A DNA stretch of 64,000 nucleotides from a virus (taxonomy: Duplodnaviria > Caudoviricetes): the IMG/VR virus record IMGVR_UViG_3300042883_001293; one strand, given 5' to 3'. A program made the position numbers and the translations under genes. Below the pieces are notes generated by a model. The model did not search any database, was not told where the DNA came from, and saw only the letters and a program-made list of their open reading frames with translations. Within the stretch, counting starts at the first letter, position 1; every line of letters starts with the position of its first letter. Positions 15,437-31,234 of this stretch are shown in pieces.

Positions 15437-15440
15437 CTCC

Positions 15441-15917: not shown

Positions 15918-15923
15918 TTAATC

Positions 15924-16296: not shown

Positions 16297-16571
16297 AAAT
16301 CTTTCAAGTTGCAAAATGGTATGTGAGAGAAGATTATGGCAAAGAATATTGCCTGACGCTTTTCTTTAACGAAAGGCAAGCACTTCTTCAAGTTGCAGTT
16401 GATATTGGGGATTATGGTTCTTGGTTTGACTGGCCCTATCTGCAAATTTCTATGGGATATGGAAGGTTATTTTCTTTCCTATTTTCTCTTGGTAAGATAG
16501 GATTTACTTTTGATATTGCTGGTCGTAACTGGCGTGATGAATTATTTTATGTAAAAGAGGTGAAGGAATGA
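16293..16571 (+). CDS. Hypothetical protein (W/F-rich beta family; compare 21085)
   Basis: ATGA-coupled. Confidence 0.65.
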   Translation: MKIFQVAKWYVREDYGKEYCLTLFFNERQALLQVAVDIGDYGSWFDWPYLQISMGYGRLFSFLFSLGKIGFTFDIAGRNWRDELFYVKEVKE

Positions 16572-17149
16572 CTATTTCACAAGGATTAGTATCAGAAGAA
16601 AACGAAGATCCTGGATTTGAAATAATTCATCTATCCTTTCGTAAGAGAGAGTCCACCCATCTTTATGGTGGTCCAGTAGATTATTATATTGGTAACATCG
16701 TATTTCGTCTGACGGACCCAGATGCAAGGGGTCGAATGGAATATTACATGAGAGAGAATGAAGAGATTCGTGTAGCACCAGACCTTGAGTTGATGGAAAA
16801 GTATTACGAAGACCTTCACTTTGTATTTGATGATCCAGAAGAACTTGATGAAGAACATGATGGAGAAAAATATACTCCACTTCAAATTCTAAACAAAAAT
16901 GGTATCAAGGATGAAGATGTATTCATTCGTGCTCATCGTCGCAATACTGCACCACTCCATGACTTTATTCAATATAATGAAAAGTTTGATTGTTACCGAA
17001 TGCACGAATACTTCCAAGACACTCCCGTGGTTCGTGGTATAATGCAGTATCTACAAGACATGAAGGATGGAAAACCAAATCCTAGTAGAACTGTTTATCA
17101 TGAACAGTTCATTAATACACTTGAAAACCTTTGCTGGTGGTGGGACTGA
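16568..17149 (+). CDS. Hypothetical protein
   Basis: ATGA-coupled, 193 aa. Confidence 0.75.
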   Translation: MTISQGLVSEENEDPGFEIIHLSFRKRESTHLYGGPVDYYIGNIVFRLTDPDARGRMEYYMRENEEIRVAPDLELMEKYYEDLHFVFDDPEELDEEHDGEKYTPLQILNKNGIKDEDVFIRAHRRNTAPLHDFIQYNEKFDCYRMHEYFQDTPVVRGIMQYLQDMKDGKPNPSRTVYHEQFINTLENLCWWWD

Positions 17150-17334
17150 TGAAAGAATTTCCTGATAAACTACAACTTGATATAATGTGGACTGTTGCCA
17201 CCTCATCCAGTATTGAAACTGGCACAAGACCCCAGTACGGGTTCGCCCAGATGCTGTATGATTACATCACAGACAAAAAACCTCTTGTTGAACTCGATTA
17301 TGACTTACAAAGCAACCCTGAAAGTTCAGTTTGA
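17149..17334 (+). CDS. Small protein overprinted on an early promoter element
   Basis: Paralog fragment at 30085; contains dyad 17203-17226. Confidence 0.55.
   Translation: MKEFPDKLQLDIMWTVATSSSIETGTRPQYGFAQMLYDYITDKKPLVELDYDLQSNPESSV
17203..17262 (+). promoter_or_regulatory. Early dyad element + -10 (inside CDS)
   Basis: tcatccagt-attgaa-actggcaca; TATGAT 30 bp downstream. Confidence 0.6.
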
Positions 17335-17704
17335 TAGTGAATGGACTTCCACTAGTTACAGTAGTGGTTTTGATGATACAGTGCTCCCCGAAGAGCATTA
17401 CACTTTTCAGGTTCCTGCCGAAGACCTTAATGTTCATCAACTGTTTCGCTTCTTTGCAACTGTTGCTCGCGCAATGGGACACGATGAGGTCAACATTATG
17501 AAAGGTGCTTGTGGTGTTGCATTTGCTGAGGATAAAAGTGTAGTGAATATGCGTAAGGTTGCTGATGAGTTTGAACTGACTTTGGGTGAGGACTTGAAGA
17601 AGAAGTTTGATGATATGCGAGAAGCAGAAGCAGAGTGGGCACGACTGAAGAAAGGTCCGATGGGAACTGTTCTCTCTGATGAGAAAGACCAATGCGACGA
17701 GTAA
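17300..17704 (+). CDS. Hypothetical protein
   Basis: ATG after promoter element. Confidence 0.7.
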   Translation: MTYKATLKVQFDSEWTSTSYSSGFDDTVLPEEHYTFQVPAEDLNVHQLFRFFATVARAMGHDEVNIMKGACGVAFAEDKSVVNMRKVADEFELTLGEDLKKKFDDMREAEAEWARLKKGPMGTVLSDEKDQCDE

Positions 17705-17904
17705 TCGTAAAACCTAAATCTAGCAAGGCAAAGAATCGTCTTGCTAACATTATGGAAAACAATCCTGTCTGTATTGTAGAACAGGATACTGGTGGTGAGT
17801 TATTCTTAGCATCAGAAAATCGCAAATACTTTATGTGGGTTAGTACTCGTACTGGTACTAACCGTTTTGGTGACAAATCTGACGCACATTGGGAGGTTAT
17901 TTAA
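17692..17904 (+). CDS. Conserved cyanophage protein (KAKNRLAN family), paralog of 54937
   Basis: Shared KAKNRLAN...VEQ...LF...W motifs. Confidence 0.75.
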   Translation: MRRVIVKPKSSKAKNRLANIMENNPVCIVEQDTGGELFLASENRKYFMWVSTRTGTNRFGDKSDAHWEVI

Positions 17905-18185
17905 TGAGTTTTTCTAAGACTGTTTCTGTTTTTGCTGCTCTCGCAAGTATCTTTGCTGCTGGTGCTACTGGTTGGAAACTTGCAGATTCTCAAAAAGAAG
18001 TTCCTCTGAGTCCATTAGACCAAAAGGTTATGGAGTTGGAGAAGAAACTGGATCAAGCACAACAACCTCAAGTTGCTCCAGAACCTGTAAATCTCCCACA
18101 ACCTACAGTTCAAACAGCACCACAACTTAACGTACTTCCTGCTCCAACACCACCTCCTCCTGTTCCCGAAAATGCCACTCCTTGA
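17904..18185 (+). CDS. Secreted/membrane-anchored Pro-rich protein
   Basis: Signal-like N-terminus, PTPPPP tail. Confidence 0.65.
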   Translation: MSFSKTVSVFAALASIFAAGATGWKLADSQKEVPLSPLDQKVMELEKKLDQAQQPQVAPEPVNLPQPTVQTAPQLNVLPAPTPPPPVPENATP

Positions 18186-18363
18186 TACTCTCAACTACTT
18201 CATACAAGACCAAGAAGGGCACCTACAATGTCTTGAATGGGACATTAGGGAAGAAACCAATTATGAGAACAATGACATTGATTGGTATTGTGAACAGTAT
18301 GATGAAGCAAAACAACGAATAGAAGACCTCAAACAAATCAAAACCATTATTGAAAATCAATGA
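18172..18363 (+). CDS. Hypothetical protein
   Basis: Coupled ORF. Confidence 0.65.
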   Translation: MPLLDTLNYFIQDQEGHLQCLEWDIREETNYENNDIDWYCEQYDEAKQRIEDLKQIKTIIENQ

Positions 18364-18800
18364 AAACCTACAATCTCACTATCACTGAAAAGCAGGCACG
18401 AGCACTTGTAGATGCTACTGATTTGCTTCAACGAGTTCAACTTGGTCAGTGGAGAGAAATTCAAGATAATCTACCTCTTCAAAAACCAATTGACTATGAG
18501 GAATTTCATCAGGATATGAGAATTATTGGAGCAATTCTATCCAAACATATGATTGATGGTATTGATGGTGGTGCTTCCTCACTTGGAGTAGGACATCCAG
18601 ACCTTCCAGAAAGCAATGGTATTCTTTATGACCTTCATCGGGTAATTCGTAGGAAACTTTCTGTGGAACGAGCAGTAGAACAGGGCATTATTGAGAATGA
18701 AAATGTTTCCAGAAATGAAATGCCTATCACAGTAGATTTTGATTTACCTATGAAATGGGGAACCGAACCACTTGCTCAAATGGAGAGAGTAAATGAATAA
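18360..18800 (+). CDS. Hypothetical protein
   Basis: Coupled ORF. Confidence 0.7.
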   Translation: MKTYNLTITEKQARALVDATDLLQRVQLGQWREIQDNLPLQKPIDYEEFHQDMRIIGAILSKHMIDGIDGGASSLGVGHPDLPESNGILYDLHRVIRRKLSVERAVEQGIIENENVSRNEMPITVDFDLPMKWGTEPLAQMERVNE

Positions 18801-19044
18801 GGACGCATACTACGACTGGATTGCTGAAAACGATACTTATCCAGAACATTCTCATAAGTGGATAGTGGGACTTTATACTCCTGATGGTGGTAGATTTGAT
18901 ATGCTACACCGATACTTTGGAACATTTGATACAAGAGAAGACGCAAAGGTATTCGCAGCAGATTATAAGGACAAATATACAAAACCAGGATTTATTTCCA
19001 GAACCAAAATCTTTCCATTATGTGAGGTATTAAAGGACACTTGA
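18793..19044 (+). CDS. Hypothetical protein
   Basis: Coupled ORF; C-terminus encoded by dyad. Confidence 0.65.
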   Translation: MNKDAYYDWIAENDTYPEHSHKWIVGLYTPDGGRFDMLHRYFGTFDTREDAKVFAADYKDKYTKPGFISRTKIFPLCEVLKDT

Positions 19045-19091
19045 AGAACTGGCACAGGGTATCTCCACAGGTGCCCTTTTTGCCATATAAT
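19033..19091 (+). promoter_or_regulatory. Early dyad element + hairpin + -10
   Basis: aaggacact-tgaaga-actggcaca; TATAAT 29 bp downstream. Confidence 0.75.
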
Positions 19092-19112
19092 AACTTCAGT
19101 TCAAACAAAGCG

Positions 19113-19271
19113 ATGACCACCATCACTCAAGAGCACTGGGACACACTCTACACCAAACTCTATGAGGCGTATGAAGAGTGCAGCAAAAACTATGATGAGA
19201 CTTACCGACAAATGATCGGTCAAGTTCTGGATCACATGATCTACAACAAACCTTATCTGAACATCAAATGA
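19113..19271 (+). CDS. Hypothetical protein
   Basis: ATG after promoter leader. Confidence 0.6.
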   Translation: MTTITQEHWDTLYTKLYEAYEECSKNYDETYRQMIGQVLDHMIYNKPYLNIK

Positions 19272-19441
19272 TCAGAGCAATCCTCAATCAGTTTCCAGTT
19301 AAGTATGGAACTTACACTGCTGAAAACAACAAGATCCGCCGAACATTTTCCAACGGTTTCAGTTACATCGTAGAAGAATTTAACTCACCAGAAGAAGCAC
19401 AACGTATCGTCAGTGACCTCAACTATCTTACAGGCAAATGA
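19268..19441 (+). CDS. Hypothetical protein (57 aa)
   Basis: Own translation; ATGA overlaps at both ends. Confidence 0.6.
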   Translation: MIRAILNQFPVKYGTYTAENNKIRRTFSNGFSYIVEEFNSPEEAQRIVSDLNYLTGK

Positions 19442-19725
19442 CTGAAACCAAAACCTATCCCTACCTCAAATACATTCCACATTGGTTTGCTCTTCGTTTT
19501 ATTACATTTGCTCCACTTGCGGTCGTCCAATCAACAGTAGATTTTATTTCTATTTCTTTGGATAAACTTTATGATAAAATGGATAAAGTTCTTCCGCAAG
19601 CATATGTTGAAAAGCAAGTAGAATGGGATCAGTTGCCCAAACGAAATCAAGAGGCGATTGAGTATCTTGCAAAAAAGCGTGATACTACCAAAGAACGAAT
19701 TCTCATTCAAACTGTGAAACCATGA
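19438..19725 (+). CDS. Hypothetical protein
   Basis: Coupled ORF. Confidence 0.65.
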   Translation: MTETKTYPYLKYIPHWFALRFITFAPLAVVQSTVDFISISLDKLYDKMDKVLPQAYVEKQVEWDQLPKRNQEAIEYLAKKRDTTKERILIQTVKP

Positions 19726-20006
19726 CTGACCACGAAGAACTCCCAGTATCAAACGAATTCGTCACATTTGTAAGAATTCAACTTGACCACGAACAAAGAC
19801 AACAACTCCGTCGTTATCTAAATCTTCATTATCTTGGTGATGTGAATTGTAATGAGTATGATGAGAACTTCAAACTTGTTCCCAAATACCCAGAGAAAGA
19901 AACACAAGAGTTCAAAGATGCTATGTGGAGAGCAGATATGTCAGTAGATTATCAAGTCAAAGTGGTTTATGATGTGAATGGTAAATGTAAAATGGAGTTG
20001 CTATGA
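19722..20006 (+). CDS. Hypothetical protein
   Basis: Coupled ORF. Confidence 0.65.
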   Translation: MTDHEELPVSNEFVTFVRIQLDHEQRQQLRRYLNLHYLGDVNCNEYDENFKLVPKYPEKETQEFKDAMWRADMSVDYQVKVVYDVNGKCKMELL

Positions 20007-20230
20007 AACCTTATCTTTTGATTGTTGGGGACAACTACTACCCTTCTGCTTATACTGGTGATTGGGTTGCTTGTTATTCTACCGAAGAAGAAGCAAAAGA
20101 AAAATGGGAAGAACTATCTAAAGATAAGTATAGTAATGATTGGTATGAAATCGTTGATTTGAGGGAATGGATGGAAGATACTACATTTGATACTTTTGGA
20201 CCTACTGGACTTATTGGAGACCCACAATAG
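20003..20230 (+). CDS. Hypothetical protein
   Basis: Coupled ORF. Confidence 0.65.
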   Translation: MKPYLLIVGDNYYPSAYTGDWVACYSTEEEAKEKWEELSKDKYSNDWYEIVDLREWMEDTTFDTFGPTGLIGDPQ

Positions 20231-20243
20231 TAGAATAAATAGA

Positions 20244-20305
20244 AGTGTCTGTTTGGACGGCAATCTCTACAGACAAAAGATTAGGTGCTTTCGGGCACCT
20301 TTTCT
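20244..20305 (+). ncRNA. Candidate antisense sRNA B (cognate to 20341)
   Basis: ATAAATA 20235-41; stem tgtctgt/acagaca; terminator aggtgc-tttcgg-gcacct-tttct; 20248-62 complementary to 20320-34. Confidence 0.6.
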
Positions 20306-20307
20306 AT

Positions 20308-20315
20308 TATAAATA
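20308..20315 (+). promoter_or_regulatory. Late promoter TATAAATA
   Basis: Exact consensus. Confidence 0.7.
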
Positions 20316-20340
20316 ATAATGCCGTCCAAATAGAATAGAA

Positions 20341-21006
20341 ATGACTAAAAATAGTCCTAGAATTTACACATATAAGGTTACCTTTGAAGAAGTTCCTTAT
20401 TACTATTATGGTAGTAAAAAAGAAAGGTATTTTGATGAAGAGTATTGGGGTTCTCCCGTAGCAAACAAATGGTGTTGGGGACTTTATACTCCAAAGAAAC
20501 AGATATTGGAATATTTTGAGTTTAGTGATGAAGGATATATCAAAGCACAAGAAGTTGAAGGGAGATTAATTAACCCAGTATATAATACCGATAAATGGTG
20601 CTTAAATGAAAGTTGCTTGGGAGTTTTTTCTTTAGAGCAAAAAAGTAAAGCAGGAAAAAAAGCATATGAACTTAAATTAGGGGTTCATTCAAGAAGTAAA
20701 GACCAAATGAGTAAAGATGGTAAAAAAGGTGGAAACAGCAATAGAGAAAATAAAACTGGAATTTGTGGAAGAAGTTTGGAAGAAATGATTGAACACGGCA
20801 GAATAACTGGTTATAAAAAGAAAGAATTAAATATCGGTGTTTGTGGTTTATCAAAAGAACAGAGAATTGAAAATTCTAAAATAACTAATTCTCAAAGATG
20901 GAAATGTTGTATAAGTGGTTATGTATCTACTGCTTCTGGTGTAGTTCAGCATCAAAAAGGAAAAGGAATAGATACATCAAAAAGTAATAGACGCAGAATA
21001 GCATAG
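20341..21006 (+). CDS. Seg-like GIY-YIG homing endonuclease
   Basis: IYTY...YYYYG...YWGS...E...N; paralog of 14009 and 26683. Confidence 0.75.
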   Translation: MTKNSPRIYTYKVTFEEVPYYYYGSKKERYFDEEYWGSPVANKWCWGLYTPKKQILEYFEFSDEGYIKAQEVEGRLINPVYNTDKWCLNESCLGVFSLEQKSKAGKKAYELKLGVHSRSKDQMSKDGKKGGNSNRENKTGICGRSLEEMIEHGRITGYKKKELNIGVCGLSKEQRIENSKITNSQRWKCCISGYVSTASGVVQHQKGKGIDTSKSNRRRIA

Positions 21007-21063
21007 GACACTTCTCAAACTGGAACAAGGGCACTTGAAAACGGGTGCCCTTTGTCGTATAAT
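21004..21063 (+). promoter_or_regulatory. Early dyad element (ACTGGAACA subtype) + stem-loop promoter
   Basis: taggacact-tctcaa-actggaaca; stem aagggcac/gtgccctt; TTGAAA-17-TATAAT. Confidence 0.75.
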
Positions 21064-21084
21064 GACTTCATAAGAAACAAACCG

Positions 21085-21351
21085 ATGAAACCACTTAAAC
21101 TCTTTCAATACGATAAAAAAGTTTGGGATGATGGTGATGCCGACTACACTTGGCAGTTCGGTATCATCAACAACAAAACATTATTCTGGGTTCATTATGA
21201 AAATCCCAGTCGTTTAGTTTTTAGTGATGGTGGATTACACATCCTATTCTCATTCTTTACTAATTCTTTATTTGGAGTAGATTTTCAACTTGGTAAGGTT
21301 GGTTTGAGTTTCAATTTTTTCACAGAATACTTTGATGGGTGGGAAGAATGA
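21085..21351 (+). CDS. Hypothetical protein
   Basis: ATG after promoter leader. Confidence 0.65.
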   Translation: MKPLKLFQYDKKVWDDGDADYTWQFGIINNKTLFWVHYENPSRLVFSDGGLHILFSFFTNSLFGVDFQLGKVGLSFNFFTEYFDGWEE

Positions 21352-21572
21352 CTAACCAACAACGAGCAGAAGAACTCCTAAAAGTTATTTGTAAAAGTGA
21401 AGCACACAATACTGCTTGGATGCTTCAAGAGGTTCTTCAACAACTTCGTAAGCAACTATCAGGAACTAATAAGATTGATTTTACTGATGAACTGGATGTG
21501 ATGTTTAATGCTGGATGGGATGAATGTCTCAAAGAGATTGATGCTATTTGTGATGAACTTTTAGAACTATGA
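21348..21572 (+). CDS. Hypothetical protein
   Basis: Coupled ORF. Confidence 0.65.
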   Translation: MTNQQRAEELLKVICKSEAHNTAWMLQEVLQQLRKQLSGTNKIDFTDELDVMFNAGWDECLKEIDAICDELLEL

Positions 21573-21778
21573 TGACTAACACAGCACACCAAATCTGGGA
21601 AGCATTCAAAGCAGAACTTACACAACCAGCAACAGATGATATGAAGGAAGCACTTGCTACTGCTATTCGTGTGATTTCTTCTCTAATTTATAGAGATGGA
21701 GTGCTTGCAAATGAACCTTGGCTTACTCATACTGCTCAAGAACTAAATGAAATTGCTGGTGATGTGGAGGCACTCTAA
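21569..21778 (+). CDS. Hypothetical protein
   Basis: Coupled ORF, ends EAL. Confidence 0.65.
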   Translation: MMTNTAHQIWEAFKAELTQPATDDMKEALATAIRVISSLIYRDGVLANEPWLTHTAQELNEIAGDVEAL

Positions 21779-21975
21779 TGTCTATTGAAGATGGATTGAC
21801 TTATCGGCACAAAGCATATGCTAATTCTATGAAAGCATATCGTCAGGCAAATCCCGATTGGAAAGAACAACAACTCGCAAGTGAAGAGTATGCTAAAAAA
21901 TGGATGGAAACATCTGCTCGTGCTTATCAAATAGCACAAGAAAAACTTGCTGAATTGAATTTGGAGGCATTATGA
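21778..21975 (+). CDS. Hypothetical protein
   Basis: Coupled ORF, ends EAL. Confidence 0.65.
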   Translation: MSIEDGLTYRHKAYANSMKAYRQANPDWKEQQLASEEYAKKWMETSARAYQIAQEKLAELNLEAL

Positions 21976-22163
21976 AAGAACAAGCAAAGAAAATAGATGA
22001 TGCCTACTGGAGAGCAATAACTAATGTTCCCGATATTTACACAAAGGGTCGGGTGCGTTTTGCTGCTGGTCTCCGTGAAACTATCAACCAACTCCAACAA
22101 AGCCCTGGTGTGATTATGTGTGCTGATGTGTTAGAATTGTGTGATGAATTGGAGGCACTATGA
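21972..22163 (+). CDS. Hypothetical protein
   Basis: Coupled ORF, ends EAL. Confidence 0.65.
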   Translation: MKEQAKKIDDAYWRAITNVPDIYTKGRVRFAAGLRETINQLQQSPGVIMCADVLELCDELEAL

Positions 22164-22387
22164 AACTTGATGGATTTGATTGGTTTATTATTTTGATTAT
22201 CCCTATTATTGTAATCATTATTGGTGGTATTACCACTTATGGTGAGCAACAACAACGACTAATATTCCAACAAACATATAATAAGAACTTGGAGTGTCGT
22301 CAAGCACTCAAAGACCAAACAGTAGTAAGAGTGAATGAGATTTGTGGAACAGTTCCACAAATCAAAGATTTTGTTGGGAGAAACTGA
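22160..22387 (+). CDS. Membrane-anchored hypothetical protein
   Basis: N-terminal TM helix. Confidence 0.65.
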   Translation: MKLDGFDWFIILIIPIIVIIIGGITTYGEQQQRLIFQQTYNKNLECRQALKDQTVVRVNEICGTVPQIKDFVGRN

Positions 22388-22388
22388 A

Positions 22389-22583
22389 ATGTATAGTAAT
22401 GATGATAATTTGTGGGGACTTATTCTTTTATTCGTTTTTTGTTCTTCTCTTGTGGGTATGTTGTTATATGTTGATGGACAAGGATACAAAAAGGGAGTGA
22501 ATGAAACTCTTGTTTTGTGTATTGAGAACGCAAAGGATTGTAAAATCAAGTATGATTACTTGAAGTTGGAAGAGCAGAAATGA
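22389..22583 (+). CDS. Membrane-anchored hypothetical protein
   Basis: TM helix. Confidence 0.6.
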   Translation: MYSNDDNLWGLILLFVFCSSLVGMLLYVDGQGYKKGVNETLVLCIENAKDCKIKYDYLKLEEQK

Positions 22584-22753
22584 TTGAACTTGATAGTTGG
22601 TGTGATAATTGGACACCCACATCTTATAATGACCCCCGCATTAGTTTGAGACAGATTGCTGACCGTGCTCGTAATGTTTTAGAGGAAGAGAAAAAATCAG
22701 AAGAAGAATATGAATACTTCCACATTTCTTATCGTAAAGACGCACCTTTTTGA
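22580..22753 (+). CDS. Hypothetical protein (57 aa)
   Basis: Own translation; overlaps both neighbours by 4 bp. Confidence 0.55.
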   Translation: MIELDSWCDNWTPTSYNDPRISLRQIADRARNVLEEEKKSEEEYEYFHISYRKDAPF

Positions 22754-23187
22754 TTATGACTGACTTTCAACCAAAACCCCAGACACACGAAGAAGTTGCC
22801 GATGGTCTTCGTGAGGCTTTTAGACAAGCAATCAAAGATGGTGTGATGGATGCTACTCCTTATTTTAAACAAATGACTTTCAAATCTGATATTGAAAAGA
22901 CCGAAGCAGAAATTAAAGTGCTTCAAAAGAAACTTGACCTTCTTAAAGAGATTGAGACACATAAATCTCAACCCAGAATGGAGTTTGATTTTGGTGGGAA
23001 GTTTGAGATTGTCTCTTATAATGATGAAGAATATCTTCGTCTTCAATTTAATGATGAAAGTCATAATTGGTTTAAGAGAAAGCATACTGTTGATGGTGTG
23101 GTAATGGCTGCTATTACTGATGGTGAAACTCATCGTCTGCTTGAGGGTGTGTGGTTCAACGATGTAAAGAAGGGGAAGTATGACTAA
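22750..23187 (+). CDS. Hypothetical protein with coiled coil
   Basis: ORF track. Confidence 0.7.
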   Translation: MIMTDFQPKPQTHEEVADGLREAFRQAIKDGVMDATPYFKQMTFKSDIEKTEAEIKVLQKKLDLLKEIETHKSQPRMEFDFGGKFEIVSYNDEEYLRLQFNDESHNWFKRKHTVDGVVMAAITDGETHRLLEGVWFNDVKKGKYD

Positions 23188-23326
23188 AACTCAAAAAATT
23201 CAATCTGAAATTGATGAATTACATAAAAAGTTTGATGTTCTTCAATCACAATCTGCGACTTTAAGTGAATTGAATAGTGTGCGAAGACAGTTAAATATTG
23301 CTTATGAAAAGTTGAGGAAGAACTGA
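23180..23326 (+). CDS. Small coiled-coil protein (48 aa)
   Basis: Own translation. Confidence 0.5.
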   Translation: MTKTQKIQSEIDELHKKFDVLQSQSATLSELNSVRRQLNIAYEKLRKN

Positions 23327-23327
23327 A

Positions 23328-23633
23328 ATGACTAACCCAGAAATCATCGTAGAACGAAAAAAATATGGAAGTTCTGCTATGGATTATACTATGAGAGTTT
23401 ATCAAAAACTTGATGAAGAAACCATAATGATTGATGGTGTGAAGTATCAAAAAGTAGAAGAACCAAAACCAAAGATACTTTATGAGATGTTTTACAATAA
23501 AGGTTTAGTATCAATTTGTGATACTGTTTGTGATATTGTTGCCGATTGGTTGCCTGATGAAGATGATGGTGATGATAGATATGCTTGTGGTTGGAATGAT
23601 TGTGTTGAAAAGTTGAAGTTGAGGTTAAAATGA
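23328..23633 (+). CDS. Hypothetical protein (WLP...GWNDC family)
   Basis: Shares modules with 28049 and 28843. Confidence 0.7.
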   Translation: MTNPEIIVERKKYGSSAMDYTMRVYQKLDEETIMIDGVKYQKVEEPKPKILYEMFYNKGLVSICDTVCDIVADWLPDEDDGDDRYACGWNDCVEKLKLRLK

Positions 23634-24187
23634 CTGAACGACTAAATCATAAACTTGATGTAAGCAAAATCAAAACACTCAAAGATGTAAAGAATGTCTT
23701 TGAGTGTATGAATTTGTATTCTTATGCTGAAGAAGACCACGAAAAGTATGAACTCCTCAAAGAGTATTTTACTATTCCAAATGAACCACAAGAACTTGTC
23801 GGATTCAAACTACCACGCAAGTCATTAGAAGAAATCTCACGGGAATTTGATGCGAAGATTGATAAACAGATTGAAGATGTAGAGTATAAGTTCGCACAAC
23901 TCAAATATTACCAAGAGTATCAGTTTAGTAAAAAGATTACCAGGATTATTGAGGATATTGAGTATGCTCGCAAGAATGGAAGTTTTCCAGCAAAATTAGA
24001 TTACTCTAAACTTACTGCGACTGGTAGTAATTTTACTTCCAGTTTGATAATCAAATCAGGTGGTAAAGAAGTTGGATATTATACATTCGGTAATGGATAT
24101 TTGAAGTATTATATGAATAAGAAACCGACTGCGATTGTTAGGTTCTTTATGAATAAACTTTTGGGTTTCCGTTGGGTAGACACTTGA
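23630..24187 (+). CDS. Hypothetical protein
   Basis: Coupled ORF. Confidence 0.7.
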   Translation: MTERLNHKLDVSKIKTLKDVKNVFECMNLYSYAEEDHEKYELLKEYFTIPNEPQELVGFKLPRKSLEEISREFDAKIDKQIEDVEYKFAQLKYYQEYQFSKKITRIIEDIEYARKNGSFPAKLDYSKLTATGSNFTSSLIIKSGGKEVGYYTFGNGYLKYYMNKKPTAIVRFFMNKLLGFRWVDT

Positions 24188-24243
24188 AGAACTGGCCCAG
24201 GAGCATCCCACAGGTGCTCCTTTTGGTCTATAATGACTTCATA
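24176..24243 (+). repeat. Early dyad/stem-loop promoter, direct-repeat copy 1
   Basis: Nearly identical to 24644-24712; TATAAT 29 bp after dyad. Confidence 0.8.
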
Positions 24244-24256
24244 CATCCAAATCTTT

Positions 24257-24646
24257 ATGATTTACTTCATCAGTGGGCATTTATCACTCACACAAGATGA
24301 GTTTGATATTCATTACAAACCTCTAATTGATGAGGCACTTTCTCACAATCACTCTTTTGTTGTTGGTGATGCGAAAGGTGCTGATACATTAGCACAGAAT
24401 TATTTGTTTGGTAAAACTGATAGAGTAGTTGTCTATCATATGTTTGAAACTCCAAGATATAATTCTGGGTTTCCTACCGAAGGTGGATTTCAAAGTGATG
24501 AGGAAAGAGATATTGCTATGACTGATAATAGTGATAGGGATATTGCTTGGGTAAGAAAAGGTAGGGAAAAATCTGGAACTCAAAAAAACCTTGATAGAAG
24601 AAGTGATTTGAAATATCGTCTTCTTTATTTGGGTGGAGATAGGTAG
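24257..24646 (+). CDS. SLOG/YspA-like nucleotide-binding protein
   Basis: FISGH...VVGDAKGADTLAQ...RDIAM...W...KSGT..N. Confidence 0.6.
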   Translation: MIYFISGHLSLTQDEFDIHYKPLIDEALSHNHSFVVGDAKGADTLAQNYLFGKTDRVVVYHMFETPRYNSGFPTEGGFQSDEERDIAMTDNSDRDIAWVRKGREKSGTQKNLDRRSDLKYRLLYLGGDR

Positions 24647-24712
24647 GACACTTGAAGAACTGGCACAGGAGCATCCCACAGGTGCTCCTTTTGGTTGTAT
24701 AATGACTTCATA
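24644..24712 (+). repeat. Early dyad/stem-loop promoter, direct-repeat copy 2
   Basis: taggacact-tgaaga-actggcaca; stem ggagca/tgctcc; TATAAT 30 bp downstream. Confidence 0.8.
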
Positions 24713-24724
24713 AGAAACAAACCG

Positions 24725-24898
24725 ATGCACTACGAAACTGACATCATCATTCATCAGTATTCATCTGATGGAGATTTTTATTACAAACTCAAAGTCACAG
24801 ATGTAATGAATATGGATTACTACTATGATGGTAGTGCTTCTACACTTGATGATGTTATGGAATGTATTCAACTTCACCTCAAACAACACCAGAACTGA
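24725..24898 (+). CDS. Hypothetical protein
   Basis: ATG after promoter leader. Confidence 0.6.
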   Translation: MHYETDIIIHQYSSDGDFYYKLKVTDVMNMDYYYDGSASTLDDVMECIQLHLKQHQN

Positions 24899-24899
24899 A

Positions 24900-25121
24900 A
24901 TGACCGACACACAAAAACTCCAATTCCTTCTCACCAAACTTCAAGAAACTGCAGACAATAAGCATTGTTATGATGAATGTGGTGATGATTATTCTCCTTC
25001 AGACGCTGGAAATTATGATGATGCTTTTGATGTGGGATTTGAGTATGGTGAAATCACATTTGCTCGTGATTTGCTCCAACAACTTAAACTTCAAACACAA
25101 ATTGAACCTCATTTGAAATGA
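24900..25121 (+). CDS. Hypothetical acidic protein
   Basis: ORF. Confidence 0.65.
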   Translation: MTDTQKLQFLLTKLQETADNKHCYDECGDDYSPSDAGNYDDAFDVGFEYGEITFARDLLQQLKLQTQIEPHLK

Positions 25122-25303
25122 CTGACCAAGAAAAACTTTACAAACTCTGTATTCTTGAGTTGCTGATTGCGATTGATGAGGATGTAGTGGATTGGAGGAA
25201 CTATCCTAAACTCTGGGAAGCAGTTAAACTTGCCGACAGAACTCTTGACATTTGGGCAGGAGACAATCTCAAACAAATGAAAGCAGAACTTGAAGAGGTG
25301 TAA
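25118..25303 (+). CDS. Hypothetical protein
   Basis: Coupled ORF. Confidence 0.65.
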   Translation: MTDQEKLYKLCILELLIAIDEDVVDWRNYPKLWEAVKLADRTLDIWAGDNLKQMKAELEEV

Positions 25304-25310
25304 AAACTAA

Positions 25311-25499
25311 ATGAAATACAACATCAAAAAACAACAAATCATTCAAAATGAAGAAGATGGTTGGAGTTTTCAATTTTGGGAAGAAGTAGATTTTGTAAAA
25401 ATTGTTTATTTTGAAGAACCACTTTCAAAAACAACAGAATTTCGTATTCCTAAAGATTGTGTAGAATATTTTATTGATGCTTTGGAGAACCTGAAATGA
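25311..25499 (+). CDS. Hypothetical protein
   Basis: ORF. Confidence 0.6.
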   Translation: MKYNIKKQQIIQNEEDGWSFQFWEEVDFVKIVYFEEPLSKTTEFRIPKDCVEYFIDALENLK

Positions 25500-25687
25500 C
25501 TGACTTCTCTCAAGAACGATTTGTTGATTTAGGACAAACACTCTATGTTGAGTGGTTGAAAACTTGTTCTAATATGCAAAGTGCTACGGAACAAGAACGA
25601 AGGGAAATCTTTAAGTTCGGTGCTGAACTTGCATTTGAGGCAGCAGAAGAGTTTGCTAAAGTATTCCATCATCAAGAGGAGAACTGA
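25496..25687 (+). CDS. Hypothetical protein
   Basis: Coupled ORF. Confidence 0.65.
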   Translation: MTDFSQERFVDLGQTLYVEWLKTCSNMQSATEQERREIFKFGAELAFEAAEEFAKVFHHQEEN

Positions 25688-25688
25688 A

Positions 25689-26015
25689 ATGACTATCAAA
25701 GCAACTGAACTTCTCAAACTCTTTGCCAAAGCAAAACAACTTGATTTAAGTGTTGAGGTTCGTGAGGACAAAGATGGTGATTATGTAATTCGTATCTATG
25801 AAATGTTCCGTCCAGAAAACTTTGATGAAAAGGTAGTCATCACTCAAAAAGGTGATAGTGATTGGGATAAGGGTGATTATAGTTTTGATTATATGATGGA
25901 TGTTCTTGATCGAATGTTGGAAGAAAAACGACAAGAGAAAATCAAAGAACAAAAACGACAAGAACTTCTTGCTCGTTTGACTGATTTTGAAAAGGACTTG
26001 CTTGGAGTAAAATGA
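25689..26015 (+). CDS. Hypothetical protein
   Basis: GAGGAG RBS, ATG 25689. Confidence 0.7.
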   Translation: MTIKATELLKLFAKAKQLDLSVEVREDKDGDYVIRIYEMFRPENFDEKVVITQKGDSDWDKGDYSFDYMMDVLDRMLEEKRQEKIKEQKRQELLARLTDFEKDLLGVK

Positions 26016-26350
26016 CTATCAAAAAAATCAAAGTCAAAGAAATTCAAAAGTATTATGGGGACTTTGACGGAACTCTTGAAAGTATTATTATCGCACTTCA
26101 AGCAGAATTAGATGCTGGTTGGGAGGGAATTGAGAGTGATTGGGAATGGGATTATGGTGGTGAAAAATACATCGAATATTATCTCTACAAACATCGTGAA
26201 GAAACCGATAAAGAGTATGAGAAACGAATGAAACAACTGGAGAAAGAAAAGGCAGACAAGACAAAAGCAAAAGAACGAAAACTTCAACAACTCAAGAAAG
26301 ACCTTGCTTCCTTGACTGATGATGAACTCAAACAACTTGGGGTAAGATGA
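26012..26350 (+). CDS. Hypothetical protein, C-terminal coiled coil
   Basis: Coupled ORF. Confidence 0.7.
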   Translation: MTIKKIKVKEIQKYYGDFDGTLESIIIALQAELDAGWEGIESDWEWDYGGEKYIEYYLYKHREETDKEYEKRMKQLEKEKADKTKAKERKLQQLKKDLASLTDDELKQLGVR

Positions 26351-26571
26351 CCAAATACCGAATCGTAAAAAGAAACAACTATCAAACCTATTGCTACTTC
26401 GCACAGAAGAAAGTGCTGTGGTGGTGGGTTGATTTGCCTACACATTCTTGTAGTTCTTACGGAGACTTTGAGTGCTGTGAAACACCATCTCATAATTTGA
26501 ATTTAGTTGAGAAGTATATTGAGCAGGTGATGTTCAAAAACCAAGATACTGTGGTGAAAGTTTATGGGTAA
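26347..26571 (+). CDS. Hypothetical protein
   Basis: Coupled ORF. Confidence 0.65.
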   Translation: MTKYRIVKRNNYQTYCYFAQKKVLWWWVDLPTHSCSSYGDFECCETPSHNLNLVEKYIEQVMFKNQDTVVKVYG

Positions 26572-26586
26572 ATAACTTATAAATAA

Positions 26587-26646
26587 TATGTCTGTTGAAA
26601 CCGCAATCTCTACGGACAGATTAGGTGCTCTTATGAGCACCTTTTC
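26587..26646 (+). ncRNA. Candidate antisense sRNA C (cognate to 26683)
   Basis: TATAAATA 26578-85; stem tgtctgt/acggaca; terminator aggtgctc-ttat-gagcacct-tttct; 26591-605 complementary to 26662-76. Confidence 0.6.
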
Positions 26647-26649
26647 TAT

Positions 26650-26657
26650 TATAAATA
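26650..26657 (+). promoter_or_regulatory. Late promoter TATAAATA
   Basis: Exact consensus. Confidence 0.7.
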
Positions 26658-26682
26658 ATAATGCGGTTTCAATAGAATAGAA

Positions 26683-27366
26683 ATGACTTCACAAAGTCCA
26701 AAAATATACTTGTATAAAATTACCTTTGAAGAAGTTCCATATTACTATTATGGAGTTCATAAGGAAAAATATTTTAATGATGATTATTGGGGTTCTCCAA
26801 AAACAAATAAATGGTGTTGGGAACTTTATACACCAAAGAAACAAATACTCCAATACTTTGATTTCAACGATAATGGTTGGATAGAGGCACAAGAAGTTGA
26901 AAAAAGAATAATCAAACCAGTTTATAATCAAGATAAATGGTGTTTGAATGAGAGTTGTGGTGGATATTTCTCTCTCAATACTTTAAGTATTGGTGGACAA
27001 AAAGGAGGAGAAAGAGCAAAAGAACTTGGTGTTGGATTTTTTGCTATGAGTGAAGAAGAAAAATTCCAAGCAAGAAGTAAAGTAGGTAAAAGTGGAGCAG
27101 GTGGTAGAAAAATAAAAGAACTTGGGATTGGTGTTTGTGGATTAACATTAGAGCAAAGAAGAAATCTTGGATTAAAAACCAAAGAACTTGGTGTGGGTAT
27201 ATGTGGATTGACCATAGAAGAACGAAGAGAAATTTCAAAAATTGCAAATTCTCAAAGATGGGAATGTTATGAAACTGGTTATGTATCCACTGCTGCTGGT
27301 GTTGTTGCGTATCAAAAAGCAAGAGGGATAAACACATCAAAAAACAATAGACGCAGAATATCATAA
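26683..27366 (+). CDS. Seg-like GIY-YIG homing endonuclease
   Basis: IYLY...YYYYG...YWGS; KELGxGIxGLT repeats; paralog of 20341. Confidence 0.75.
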   Translation: MTSQSPKIYLYKITFEEVPYYYYGVHKEKYFNDDYWGSPKTNKWCWELYTPKKQILQYFDFNDNGWIEAQEVEKRIIKPVYNQDKWCLNESCGGYFSLNTLSIGGQKGGERAKELGVGFFAMSEEEKFQARSKVGKSGAGGRKIKELGIGVCGLTLEQRRNLGLKTKELGVGICGLTIEERREISKIANSQRWECYETGYVSTAAGVVAYQKARGINTSKNNRRRIS

Positions 27367-27424
27367 AGACACTTTCCAAACTGGAACACGGGCACTTGAA
27401 AACGAGTGCCCTTTGTCGTATAAT
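27365..27424 (+). promoter_or_regulatory. Early dyad element (ACTGGAACA subtype)
   Basis: aaagacact-ttccaa-actggaaca; TTGAAA-17-TATAAT. Confidence 0.75.
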
Positions 27425-27448
27425 GACTTTATGAAACAACCAACTCAA

Positions 27449-27808
27449 ATGAAAGACCTTGAACTCGGACAAATGATTTTCGGTAATCCCACAGAGGAAT
27501 ATAGTGTTCCTCGTGAGAAATGGATGGGTGGTCCATTCCAAATCCTAATTGATGCGATCACAGAAAAGACAGGAGAAAAGGATTATGGATACACTCCACA
27601 TTTCTCCAACGACTTTTTTACTATGCGTCCTTATTATTGGGGTGATGAAGAAGATGAAATGGATAAACCTAACTTTGAAATCCCAAGTGAAAACTTCCGT
27701 TTGACTTGGTATAAGTATCCTTTTAGGAGTTCTTATGCGAGTGAGAAACTTACTCCAAAGAGATGGAATGATTTGGTTCAAAAATGTATTAAGAGTTTGG
27801 AAGAATGA
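27449..27808 (+). CDS. Hypothetical protein
   Basis: ATG after promoter leader. Confidence 0.7.
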   Translation: MKDLELGQMIFGNPTEEYSVPREKWMGGPFQILIDAITEKTGEKDYGYTPHFSNDFFTMRPYYWGDEEDEMDKPNFEIPSENFRLTWYKYPFRSSYASEKLTPKRWNDLVQKCIKSLEE

Positions 27809-28056
27809 CTAAACATCCAACCAACAACTGGAACTTTCACGATGACGCAGAGGATGCCTTTGTAAAGTGGTTTAATGACTTTTATAGTCCTTATACCTTT
27901 CGTTCTGAATGGTTTTACGGGGACTGTAAAGTAGAAGACGAAAAGACCCGTGAGGACATTATGTATGGTTGGATACACACATCTTTTGTTGCTGGTTGGG
28001 AAGCAGCAAACTATGCTAAACTGGAGGAGGAAGTAGGACTTACTGATAATGAGTGA
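27805..28056 (+). CDS. Hypothetical protein
   Basis: Coupled ORF. Confidence 0.7.
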   Translation: MTKHPTNNWNFHDDAEDAFVKWFNDFYSPYTFRSEWFYGDCKVEDEKTREDIMYGWIHTSFVAGWEAANYAKLEEEVGLTDNE

Positions 28057-28846
28057 TATAATTTACTACAAAAATGGTGAGGAAACATACCGTATTTCTC
28101 CTCCAACTCCTGGAACCAAATGTCCTGAAACCAAACTTGAAATCAAAATGACTGAAACCGACATCTCAAAAGTTCTCATAGAGGGAGACTACGCAACCAT
28201 TATGGGTGTGAAGTATAAGAGAGTAGAAGAACAAGAATTCACACTTGAACTCACACTTGACGAACTTCACATGCTTGATAAGTATGTTGAATATTGTGAA
28301 GAAACAAAAGAGTTTTTTGATAAACTCAAGAATGCTTATCCTAAACAAAAATCACCAGTAGAAGAAGCATATAAGAATACCTTTGGAGATTATCCTGATA
28401 TGGTACATAATCTCAATTCATTCTCAATATTCCAGAAGGGTTATGAGGCAGCACAATCAAAGAATGTTGAACCTTATTGTCCAGATGAACCTGATTGGTA
28501 TGATGAAGTAGAACATGATGAGAAGGACAATCCTCCTTATCGTATCACTGATGAAGTTGTGAATAAAATGCTGAAGGAATGGGAAGAAAATCCCCCAGAC
28601 TTTTTGAAGTTTGAAATGGGCAAAACTCTGGAAGATTTGATTACTCGGTGGTGGTTGGATATTCATACAGTCCATAAAGATTGGGATGTTCCAACTTATG
28701 TTGATGATTTGATTGACCAAATTCAGTTGTGGTTGCCGAAAGAACAATCGCACGAAGGAACACAAGATGCTTCTGTAATTGACTTGGTAGACGGATATAA
28801 TGACTGCCTCACCAAAATCAAATCAAAATTGAGGAATAAAAAATGA
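28049..28846 (+). CDS. Modular hypothetical protein (GVKY and WLP...GYNDC modules)
   Basis: ORF track. Confidence 0.75.
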   Translation: MSDIIYYKNGEETYRISPPTPGTKCPETKLEIKMTETDISKVLIEGDYATIMGVKYKRVEEQEFTLELTLDELHMLDKYVEYCEETKEFFDKLKNAYPKQKSPVEEAYKNTFGDYPDMVHNLNSFSIFQKGYEAAQSKNVEPYCPDEPDWYDEVEHDEKDNPPYRITDEVVNKMLKEWEENPPDFLKFEMGKTLEDLITRWWLDIHTVHKDWDVPTYVDDLIDQIQLWLPKEQSHEGTQDASVIDLVDGYNDCLTKIKSKLRNKK

Positions 28847-29043
28847 AACTTCACGAACGACTTACGGAATGGTATTATACTCACGATGCCGTTCAATCTG
28901 GTGATGTAATCGCAAATGAGATTGTGAATGTCGTGAAGGAATGGTTGAAAAACTATCATAAAGAAGACACCAACAAATACGATTTTGACTATTTCAGTGG
29001 ATGGGCAGATTGTATTGATATTTTAGAGAGGGATTTACGATGA
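28843..29043 (+). CDS. Hypothetical protein (GWxDC family)
   Basis: Coupled ORF. Confidence 0.65.
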   Translation: MKLHERLTEWYYTHDAVQSGDVIANEIVNVVKEWLKNYHKEDTNKYDFDYFSGWADCIDILERDLR

Positions 29044-29231
29044 CTGAACGAAACTTTACAAAAGAACTCCTATACTCATATTATGCTGATATGGAAGGTG
29101 GAGATGATGTTGAGAGCATTGATTATCGTTCTTTGATACATATCATCACCGAACTTCATAGGAGGATTGAGAAACTTGAAAGGAAGTTAGAAAAGCAGGA
29201 AGAGTATGCTATGGAGCAAAATGAACAATGA
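29040..29231 (+). CDS. Hypothetical protein
   Basis: Coupled ORF. Confidence 0.65.
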   Translation: MTERNFTKELLYSYYADMEGGDDVESIDYRSLIHIITELHRRIEKLERKLEKQEEYAMEQNEQ

Positions 29232-29799
29232 TATGCCGTGGGTCAATCTCACACAAGAAGAAGTAGAAGAACTCCGCAACAAAAAACACGAACTCACTGA
29301 ATACGGCAAACAGAGGTTGAAAGAACTTATCTACAAACAGGATATGAAAAAAATGGAAGATGCTGCAAAAAATCTTGTTCTTGAAAATCTCACGCATGAA
29401 GAAATGTTGGAAATTGCTGAAAAAAGAGAGGCAGAAAACAAAGCACTTGCTACTCTTGATGAACTTTATGAGAAGCACGGTGATGCCATGTTGAAACTTG
29501 CAGAGATTGAAAAGGATGAATGGGAACGTAGAGAACGTGCTGATACTGTCCTGCGACGATATAATCACTTTTATAATGAAGAATGTTCTGGTCTTCCTCA
29601 CGGGACACCAATCACACCAGAACATATGCAGGCACTTACTCTTGAATGTATGATTGATGCTCTCATGTGCGAAAATCTAAATGTAGAGTATAATGTGATT
29701 GCGATTGATGACATCAAGGATTTGATTGAAGGATTGTATCGGCAGAGTGATGAGTTTTTGGAACGAGTGAGGAAACTGAAAGAGCAGAATAATGGATGA
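29221..29799 (+). CDS. Hypothetical coiled-coil protein
   Basis: ORF track. Confidence 0.7.
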   Translation: MNNDMPWVNLTQEEVEELRNKKHELTEYGKQRLKELIYKQDMKKMEDAAKNLVLENLTHEEMLEIAEKREAENKALATLDELYEKHGDAMLKLAEIEKDEWERRERADTVLRRYNHFYNEECSGLPHGTPITPEHMQALTLECMIDALMCENLNVEYNVIAIDDIKDLIEGLYRQSDEFLERVRKLKEQNNG

Positions 29800-30085
29800 A
29801 TCATACTATCAGTATTATGTGATTGATTATTATGCGACTGGAGAAGGTCGTTCCATTTGGTTGATGATTTGTCCGAATAACTCTCCATCATATCCACAGG
29901 ATTATCTACAAAACCGATGGGAGAAGTTTGTAAATGTAGAGTACTATTTGTACGGGACAGAAAAACTCACAGAAGAAGAGTTTATGAAGAAGTATCGTGT
30001 GTTTATGCCAGGACACATTAAGAATACTATTGAAGAGAAAAGTATGAGTATCTGGCAATCACATTATCATTTTAATCGTTCATAA
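29792..30085 (+). CDS. Hypothetical protein
   Basis: ORF track. Confidence 0.7.
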   Translation: MDESYYQYYVIDYYATGEGRSIWLMICPNNSPSYPQDYLQNRWEKFVNVEYYLYGTEKLTEEEFMKKYRVFMPGHIKNTIEEKSMSIWQSHYHFNRS

Positions 30086-30289
30086 TGAAACCACTACCAG
30101 ATAAAAGAGAATTGGATATTATGTGGACTGTTGCCACCTCAACCAGTATTGAAACTGGCACAAGACCCCACCACGGTTTCGCAAAAATGGAAATGTCTTG
30201 AAACTGGTTATGTTAGTAATGCTGGTGGACTTTCTCAATATCAAAAGGCACGAGCAATAGATACTTCCAAAAGAGTTAGAATATCATAA
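30085..30289 (+). pseudogene. Deletion chimera: 5' half of a 17149-paralog fused to the last ~35 codons of a Seg-like endonuclease
   Basis: MKPLPDKRELDIMWTVATSTSIETGTRPHHGFA, then in another frame (30182-30289) QKWKCLETGYVSNAGGLSQYQKARAIDTSKRVRIS*. Confidence 0.75.
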
Positions 30290-30347
30290 GGACACTTCCC
30301 AAACTGGAACAAGGGCACTTGAAACCTAGTGCTTTTTGTTGTATAAT
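30288..30347 (+). promoter_or_regulatory. Early dyad element (ACTGGAACA subtype)
   Basis: aaggacact-tcccaa-actggaaca; TTGAAA-17-TATAAT. Confidence 0.7.
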
Positions 30348-30371
30348 GATTTTATGAAAGATAAACCACCT

Positions 30372-30593
30372 ATGGAAAAAAAGTTATGTGTTAGTTGCAA
30401 GTATTATCGTAAGGATTGGTTGGGTCATCTATTTGGATTTGGACACCGACACGATACTTGCACTTCTCCAAATACTTCCACAAATCTTGTAACTGGCAAC
30501 GAAAGTAGGTTTTGTGATATGCTCCGTGCTAAATGCTGGGAATCACTTGATTATTCTTGTGGTTCTGATGGTAAGTTCTGGGAGGCAAAATGA
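30372..30593 (+). CDS. Small Cys-containing hypothetical protein
   Basis: CxxCKYY...C...C...C. Confidence 0.6.
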   Translation: MEKKLCVSCKYYRKDWLGHLFGFGHRHDTCTSPNTSTNLVTGNESRFCDMLRAKCWESLDYSCGSDGKFWEAK

Positions 30594-30760
30594 AAGCATT
30601 TAAGATATGTTTTGAGTTGTGGAAACAACTGATGACTTATGATGGTCGTGACCCTGAATGGGACTTTGAAGATTATCAAGGTATTTTTTGGGATTATCTA
30701 AACTACTCTTACATTAGAACAGAGTGGAGTATCAAGAGTGAATGGAAGTGGAAGAAATGA
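30590..30760 (+). CDS. Trp-rich hypothetical protein (56 aa)
   Basis: Own translation; ATGA overlaps. Confidence 0.55.
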   Translation: MKAFKICFELWKQLMTYDGRDPEWDFEDYQGIFWDYLNYSYIRTEWSIKSEWKWKK

Positions 30761-30939
30761 ACGACGAAAAGAACCCTGATGAGATTGTCGTCAAGGACAT
30801 AGATATGATACACTTTGAGATGATGGATGATGGGTTCTTATGGTGTGGAATCTATCATAAGAATGGTCAGGTTGATCATTTCAACATCACTGCAAAGAAA
30901 AACAAACTCTCTACTATCTGGATGCCTAATTGTGGATAA
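30757..30939 (+). CDS. Hypothetical protein
   Basis: Coupled ORF. Confidence 0.65.
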   Translation: MNDEKNPDEIVVKDIDMIHFEMMDDGFLWCGIYHKNGQVDHFNITAKKNKLSTIWMPNCG

Positions 30940-31234
30940 TCTCCTACAACGATATAAAAACTACACCCGCAAGCAGTATAATCGTTACTGCTATGATGGT
31001 GATTTTGAACCTCACTTCAGGTGGAACCCATTTGATACAAATAACGATTGGGTGTATGATAATGAGAAGTGGAGACACTTTATCTGGGGATTTCAAAATA
31101 TAGCAAATGCTTGGGAGGCGTGGTCTTATTGGATGAGAGATAAGAAGTATTCTTATAAACTTCCTTATGCGATGTGGTCAGAACTAAATGATGGTTGGAT
31201 GTATATGTATGAATATTCTTGGACAAAAAAATGA
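30932..31234 (+). CDS. Trp-rich hypothetical protein
   Basis: GTG start; shares W.xLNxGW motif with 31231. Confidence 0.6.
   Translation: MDNLLQRYKNYTRKQYNRYCYDGDFEPHFRWNPFDTNNDWVYDNEKWRHFIWGFQNIANAWEAWSYWMRDKKYSYKLPYAMWSELNDGWMYMYEYSWTKK

Follow-up and report, generated by a model that had tools for sequence, protein, structure and literature searches.

Why should two short segments of a control region be rewritten in step with one another when the sequence around them is kept? The question is raised by positions 26578-26685 (plus strand) of a viral DNA, which form the control region 5' of a predicted homing endonuclease gene. The window, by which we mean the whole stretch of 64,000 nucleotides that was analysed, is part of the genome of a freshwater T4-like cyanomyovirus, whose nearest isolates are the Synechococcus phages S-SRM01, B3 and B23 (Kyanoviridae). 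A first-pass annotation had recognized the region as one copy (copy C) of a repeated element, and had described in it a small RNA (sRNA) and the untranslated region (UTR) with which this RNA pairs, the pairing being re-coded relative to that of another copy, copy B.

Homing endonucleases call for expression that is sufficient for them to spread, but not so high as to harm the phage, and their control, where they are free-standing and outside T4, has been little studied. The sequences examined here point to a portable control cassette of about 105 nt, lying 5' of free-standing homing endonuclease genes in T4-like cyanophages of the Kyanoviridae, of which copy C would be one allele. The order of its parts is a late-promoter-like motif, a 5' hairpin, an intrinsic terminator, the sequence TATAAATA, a leader that is complementary to the loop and the 5' half of the hairpin, and the ATG of the nuclease gene.

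Organization of the copy C control region

The region opens with an upstream late-promoter-like motif, TATAAATA, at 26578-26585 (PL1), which is assigned by its sequence at the level of the motif. Transcription from it is predicted to start 6 nt downstream, at 26591, where the 5' arm of a long-range helix begins. This arm occupies 26591-26605 and carries the re-coded core, ttgaaaccgca, at 26595-26605. Hairpin 1 (26590-26617) folds over the same segment, with a stem in which 26590-26595 pairs with 26612-26617 and a loop that holds the variable core. An intrinsic terminator follows at 26623-26647; it has an 8-bp stem closed by a 4-nt loop (aggtgctc/gagcacct, 26623-26642) and then TTTTCT, and was also picked up by an independent terminator scan.

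Between the two arms lies a second, nested late promoter, PL2, again a motif-level assignment, with the sequence TATAAATA at 26650-26657. The T4 rule for late starts, with the motif at -13 to -6 (PMC1524935), predicts that transcription from PL2 begins at the sixth base past the motif, 26663, which is the second base of the 3' arm. The 3' arm (26662-26676), the leader of the predicted late mRNA, carries the re-coded partner, tgcggtttcaa, at 26662-26672, and ends 6 nt before the ATG at 26683 that opens the 227-aa nuclease gene (26683-27366). All of these features are on the plus strand.

The 11-nt core at 26595-26605 is perfectly complementary to 26662-26672, and with the flanking pairs, one G·U included, 26591-26605 and 26662-26676 form a helix of 15 bp that spans -21 to -7 relative to the ATG. 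The arms are on one strand and about 55 nt apart. In an RNA that reads through the region, the long-range helix is the minimum-energy fold, at -42.9 kcal/mol and z = -8.5 against shuffles; the read-through RNA of copy B also has the long-range helix (z = -6.2 against shuffles).

Two smaller features were seen at the edges of the region. An extra TAAATA at 26569-26574, 11 nt before PL1, overlaps the stop codon of the upstream ORF, and the copy C region thus has two tandem late-promoter-like cores. At the other end, a 5-bp hairpin begins at the second codon of the nuclease gene, GACUU/AAGUC in copy C (26686-26699) and GACUA/UAGUC in copy B (20344-20357). In the fifth pair of this hairpin both bases differ between the two copies, a difference that is confounded by coding constraint on the conserved N-terminus.

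Compensatory changes between copies B and C

Copy B lies at 20234-20343, on the plus strand, and has the same scaffold as copy C, with its arms at 20248-20262 and 20320-20334. Its core is tttggacggca and the partner tgccgtccaaa. The core had earlier been given as ttggacggca, a 10-base form from which one t was dropped; it is 11 bases long. The remaining description of the two copies proved accurate: the elements lie where they had been placed, ttgaaaccgca and tgcggtttcaa of copy C have changed in step relative to copy B, and the surrounding stem, the terminator arms aggtgc/gcacct and the linker tttctattataaataataat are kept.

The two copies were compared within an alignment of 32 sequences that share the B/C scaffold, the subfamily that was used for the analysis of covariation (alignment A1). 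In the 7-pair core, 8 of 14 positions differ between B and C, corresponding to four pairs, all of which are changed on both sides. None of the 16 positions in the rest of the arms differs. Over the remainder of the region, from PL1 to the ATG, there are differences at 8 of 76 positions, four of them in the 5-nt spacer between promoter and start and three in the terminator apex. The encoded nucleases are only 58% identical. Outside the pairing core, conservation of the control region thus far exceeds that of the downstream genes. Within the window, the linker tttctattataaataataat combined with aggtgc...gcacct arms occurs only at B and C, a result that none of 100 shuffles reached.

The predicted duplex between the arms is -26.4 kcal/mol for B with B and -24.0 kcal/mol for C with C, compared with -13.3 and -9.3 kcal/mol for the swapped pairs. 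The re-coding between B and C most likely represents compensatory evolution of the long helix, whilst the other parts of the scaffold (the promoters, the terminator and the start region) are constrained in their sequence.

The cassette in the window and in other viral contigs

Two further cassettes, copy A (13901-14011) and copy D (41189-41290), have the same order of parts as B and C. A detector that requires two TAAATA motifs and a strong duplex between arm and leader, and nothing else, found exactly these four in the 64 kb, all on one strand. The arm sequences of copies A to D are unrelated. Their cognate duplexes range from -24.0 to -26.4 kcal/mol, and the twelve cross-pairs all fall between -4.3 and -14.7 kcal/mol.

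A larger sample was assembled from viral contigs with a pattern made up of the terminator tail, PL2 and the first three bases of the leader, which yielded 100 distinct cassettes. A cognate duplex of 14-22 bp was present in every one of them. The mean duplex energy is -23.6 kcal/mol for cognate and -12.0 kcal/mol for non-cognate combinations, with 6.4% of the latter reaching -19 kcal/mol, and grouping by cross-reactivity resolves the 100 cassettes into 32 pairing codes. Among isolate phages, BLAST found the cassette only in S-SRM01, B3 and B23.

In alignment A1 the long helix is 98.1% paired, with changes on both sides at 8 of its 15 pairs, and the terminator stem is 100% paired. Helix and terminator together contain 71 cells with changes on both sides; shuffles have 22 ± 4.5, and none of 500 reached the observed number. 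When the partner was moved by 1-3 columns as a control, pairing fell from 98.7% to 33-54%. The first-pass annotation had concluded from B and C that selection acts on base pairing and not on primary sequence; this is strongly supported, and it extends to 100 cassettes in which the duplex is kept and the arms differ. These hundred or so natural variants, which have kept their pairing while their sequence was rewritten, constitute a ready-made compensatory-mutation experiment.

The two arms are also an inverted repeat in DNA, and the cassettes have clearly been shuffled between genes. Both observations would fit an element that works as DNA and has no function in RNA, such as a cruciform, a site of recombination or a quasi-palindrome whose complementarity is maintained by template-switch repair. 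We regard an explanation of this kind as very improbable. The cassettes taken together have 87 G·U pairs and not a single equivalent A·C mismatch, an asymmetry that has meaning only in the plus-strand RNA, and the predicted transcript starts of both promoters coincide exactly with the arms. The excess of G·U over A·C thus indicates that selection acts on the plus-strand RNA, and the conclusion that it acts on RNA pairing is firmly supported.

Rfam returned two sub-threshold matches within 13000-31000 (E = 0.31 and 0.81) and none at copy C, and no transcriptomes were found for S-SRM01, B3 or B23. In 24 metatranscriptome runs, 6-9% of the words of 19900-27500 were recovered, a sample that is uninformative on expression. 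Contigs from four of these runs left 26504-27500 uncovered, with only a trace of cover close to copy B, which likewise has no bearing on expression.

A cis-acting mask over the translation start

The most likely function of the pairing, and one that we favour with modest confidence, is that of a translational mask acting in cis, with the terminator as a first barrier. According to this proposal, the terminator would stop most of the transcription that arrives from the upstream early genes. In the RNAs that read through it, the 15-bp helix, with an energy of about -24 kcal/mol, would bury the translation start region from -21 to -7 and so keep the nuclease from being made. Late in infection, the nested TATAAATA would instead direct transcription from a start one base into the 3' arm. 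The resulting mRNA, having no 5' arm, would possess an unstructured leader and would be translated. The unit of hairpin 1 and terminator, transcribed from the upstream motif, may in addition be released as an sRNA that pairs with the same leader in trans. Three of these steps are inferred: activity of PL2, leakage through the terminator, and a block to initiation by a helix whose end lies 6 nt short of the AUG.

Several features of the cassettes are consistent with masking. At the level of motifs, a late promoter is found between the arms with its predicted start inside the 3' arm, and PL2 is TATAAATA in 133 of 137 cassettes that were collected with the detector requiring TAAATA only. Leaders beginning at the PL2 start are no more structured than shuffles in copies A to C (z = -0.1 to -0.3). 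In one subfamily of cassettes the helix has a 4-bp extension, AUAG with CUAU, which reaches upstream of the predicted PL1 start on one side and into the AUG on the other; the two halves are associated with a Fisher p of 8e-4, calculated without phylogenetic correction. As it extends beyond the predicted PL1 start, this pairing fits only a read-through RNA.

Other features sit less comfortably with the mask. The terminator enclosed in the loop looks strong, having G+C-rich stems of 8-12 bp and often UUCG or GAAA loops, so that transcripts with both arms may be rare. In most cases the helix ends 2-6 nt short of the AUG, which is rarely inside it, and no clear Shine-Dalgarno sequence is visible at the start region of the cassette; thus it is only the position of the helix that suggests sequestration of the ribosome binding site. 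Moreover, a mask acting purely in cis leaves unexplained the invariance of the upstream motif (100 of 100 cassettes), the spacing by which its predicted start falls at the first base of hairpin 1, and the covariation that hairpin 1, a competitor of the mask, shows on its own account.

A transcriptional attenuator was considered and rejected, as the 3' arm lies downstream of the terminator and cannot control termination.

The helix could also be read as an element of RNA processing or stability. The long helix, or hairpin 1, would then be the target of a double-strand-specific or 5'-end-dependent RNase, and the nuclease transcripts would be matured or destroyed with no block to ribosomes. In favour of this are the helix length of 15-22 bp and the reported processing by RNase E of transcripts of T4 segB and segG and of Aeh1 mobE (PMC2988022). 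However, the cassettes have no conserved internal-loop or cleavage motif, and masking is the simpler explanation of a helix placed over the start region and of a nested promoter. We therefore judge an RNase target to be an improbable explanation.

A possible antisense RNA

A different account of the pairing is that the cassette encodes an antisense sRNA acting in trans, either as the main selected function or as a layer added to another. We consider this possible, but less probable than the cis mask. PL1 would drive the synthesis of an RNA of 48-61 nt comprising hairpin 1 and the terminator hairpin. The loop and the 5' half of the stem of hairpin 1 would pair with the first ~15 nt of the late nuclease mRNA, damping its translation, and the re-coded core would be the seed of a cognate pair of sRNA and leader.

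The conservation of PL1 fits this account. N[A/C]TAAATA lies 63-76 nt (86 nt in one case) before PL2 in all of the 100 cassettes, whose retrieval had not depended on this motif. The background frequency of TAAATA is 0.0006 per nt. It is often the very first conserved element past unrelated upstream genes. PL1 is the full TATAAATA in only 23 of 137 cassettes; it fits the late-promoter consensus published for S-PM2, NATAAATA (PMC2984593), and for Aeh1, CTAAATA (PMC1524935). Its predicted start coincides with the base of hairpin 1, and a transcript that begins at the first base of this hairpin could, in our reading, never express the nuclease. In addition, every one of the 100 units from PL1 to the terminator folds as two hairpins followed by a U tail, within the size range given above.

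Hairpin 1 has compensatory changes of its own, which do not depend on the long helix. Pairing within it is 95.3% in A1, and three of its six pairs change on both sides. The exchanges include G-C to A-U, in 10 sequences, at a pair that lies outside the long helix, and U-A to C-G where the long-range pair is lost. On sequence grounds, the conserved upstream motif and the independently covarying 5' hairpin make a separate sRNA plausible.

An sRNA should be complementary to an accessible site in its target, and such a site is predicted. The mRNA from PL2 retains 14 of the 15 target bases, in a 5' end that is unstructured in copies A to C, and once the cost of opening hairpin 1 is included, the predicted net binding averages -13.3 kcal/mol for cognate against -3.1 kcal/mol for non-cognate combinations. 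Within the window, the corresponding values are -19.0 kcal/mol for C with C and -15.2 kcal/mol for B with B, compared with -1.6 kcal/mol for the B sRNA on the C leader and -6.5 kcal/mol for the C sRNA on the B leader.

There is, however, evidence that points the other way. PL1 is identified as a motif only, and the stop codon of the upstream gene is part of it in 40 of 80 cases. The AUAG/CUAU pairing of the subfamily extends upstream of the start predicted for PL1. A single code may precede up to four nuclease families, so that the code is not tied to the gene that it controls. Finally, cassettes in the same contig are no more orthogonal than random pairs: with one twice-detected cassette removed, the 108 ordered pairs include 4 at -19 kcal/mol or stronger, where about 6.4 would be expected. 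The re-coding thus has the appearance of compensatory drift and shuffling on a constrained scaffold, and not of selection for distinct addresses. That the re-coding guards against cross-talk, as the first-pass annotation implied, is accordingly without support, since same-contig cassettes cross-react as often as random pairs. Of the 'sRNA-UTR pairing' that it had proposed, the pairing stands; the label of a separate sRNA is not established, with both arms in one strand and the read-through RNA folding in cis.

In its fullest form, the antisense reading would have each cassette encode a late sRNA of ~55 nt, whose loop could be re-coded freely and would act as the seed in pairing with the leader of the neighbouring nuclease mRNA. 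Populations of cyanophages would in that case harbour a natural library of at least 32 largely orthogonal pairs of sRNA and leader on one scaffold, by means of which selfish nucleases throttle their own late expression. We put this forward tentatively. If true, it would represent a new class of phage regulatory RNA, a tandem analogue of antitoxin RNAs under phage late promoters, and could provide orthogonal riboregulator pairs. Otherwise, the cassette would be a well-documented but incremental extension of the I-TevI paradigm.

Relation to known systems

The cis mask that we favour has close precedents. In the case of I-TevI, I-TevII, I-TevIII, segB and Aeh1 mobE, the ribosome binding site of early and middle transcripts is concealed in a stable RNA structure, and a late promoter within the structure gives rise to a late mRNA that is unable to form it (PMC2988022). 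This control has been shown experimentally for I-TevI and described for the others (PMC2988022). Like these T4-family masks, the cassette has a predicted helix over the translation start region in upstream-derived transcripts and an TATAAATA late-promoter motif inside the structure, from which the predicted late mRNA would lack the 5' arm, and the regulated gene is a homing endonuclease. Unlike them, its loop encloses a complete intrinsic terminator, and a second late-promoter-like motif and a separately conserved 5' hairpin stand in front. Its helix rarely includes the AUG, it has no clear Shine-Dalgarno sequence, and it is a common, shuffled module that serves at least eight N-terminal nuclease families.

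Hairpins of a related kind were described by Dassa et al. (2009) at 'fractured gene' loci in ocean metagenomes. A hairpin is found 5' of the start codon in 15 of 16 loci, 10 with TATAAATA; the hairpins lie upstream of free-standing endonuclease genes and contain two conserved, mutually complementary motifs (PMC2677866). The cassette resembles them in belonging to environmental phage-like loci, a likeness by description and not by sequence, and the text on their nucleotide features makes no mention of a terminator, a second upstream promoter motif, an alternative 5' hairpin or a set of codes (PMC2677866).

A search of the literature for the exact cassette, or for a cyanophage late-promoter transcriptome, produced only general precedents, and no paper was found that describes the terminator-containing form with two promoters. 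The best reading is that the cassette is an elaborated form of the T4 I-TevI/segB/mobE control, with the second late-promoter-like motif and the separately covarying 5' hairpin going beyond that scheme.

For the putative sRNA the comparison is with type I toxin-antitoxin systems that have trans-encoded antisense RNAs, such as IstR-1/tisB and Orz/zor. Like these antitoxins, it would be a short, terminator-ended RNA encoded beside a potentially harmful gene, with ~15-20 nt complementary to the 5' leader of that gene. Unlike the toxins, the target is a predicted 227-aa nuclease of the GIY-YIG type and not a small hydrophobic membrane peptide, and the putative RNA and its target lie in tandem on one strand, both behind predicted phage late promoters.

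A further cyanophage non-coding RNA linked to a homing endonuclease gene, as that of the cassette would be, is CfrI of S-PM2, a true antisense transcript of ~225 nt that comes from the opposite strand (PMC2984593). Upstream of the S-PM2 gene for F-CphI (L135, 580-650) there is a terminator followed by TATAAATA and a short leader, without a complementary 5' arm or an upstream motif; the arrangement looks like a simpler form of the module.

The nuclease genes and shuffling of the cassette

The gene downstream of copy C is predicted to encode a free-standing homing endonuclease of the GIY-YIG type. Its ORF matches phrog_314, annotated 'homing endonuclease', with E = 4e-8, and has NUMOD3-like repeats at the C-terminus. 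A structural model was predicted from 21 relatives (mean pLDDT 65), and in an exhaustive structural search the best match of its N-terminal domain was the catalytic domain of I-TevI (1ln0_A; Z 6.1, rmsd 2.8 Å, 76 residues aligned). The GIY-YIG domains of T4 EndoII, UvrC and Slx1 were also within the top 10 matches. GIY-YIG domains have an alpha/beta catalytic fold in which Tyr, Tyr-Gly, Glu and Asn are conserved; residues Y9, Y11, Y20-23, G24, E73 and N89 are invariant in the 21 relatives, as is residue 27, which is a Lys and not an Arg. Foldseek against the PDB and a PDB sequence search gave nothing significant for the copy C nuclease, and a Pfam scan of three paralogues gave nothing significant either.

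Downstream of the 100 cassettes at least eight N-terminal nuclease families are found, GIY-YIG, HNH and NUMOD3-bearing proteins among them. Twelve of 61 arm codes occur with more than one nuclease family, which argues that the cassette is a shuffled regulatory module and not a feature of one gene lineage. The copy B code, tttggacggca, together with its scaffold, precedes four N-terminal families in different contigs (L107, L115, L091, L103 and copy B). An identical code in front of four families suggests that the cassette and the nuclease ORF recombine independently. The picture that emerges is of a modular, transferable form of control that is used by several unrelated nuclease families (GIY-YIG, HNH) in lake and estuarine cyanophages.

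Small duplications in tandem are seen in some cassettes: L129 and L011 have one of the PL2 region, and L084 has one of the leader unit atagaa. They point to an AT-rich linker that is prone to slippage as it evolves.

Directly past the stop codon of the copy C nuclease, at 27385-27430, there is a G+C-rich hairpin with TTGAAA in its loop and TATAAT 17 nt later, a pair that matches the sigma-70 consensus at 11 of 12 positions. Judged from its sequence, this is a putative early promoter in a terminator-like stem, which would restart early transcription past the inserted cassette. It resembles the promoter-early stem-loops (PeSLs) of T4-type phages. Similar stem-loops are found at 21010-21070, 24160-24243, 24628-24712 and 30290-30356. 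A fourth nuclease paralogue is represented at 30131-30289 by a remnant of its C-terminal part, with ~73% DNA identity to the end of the copy C gene; it has kept the downstream promoter stem-loop and has no control cassette upstream.
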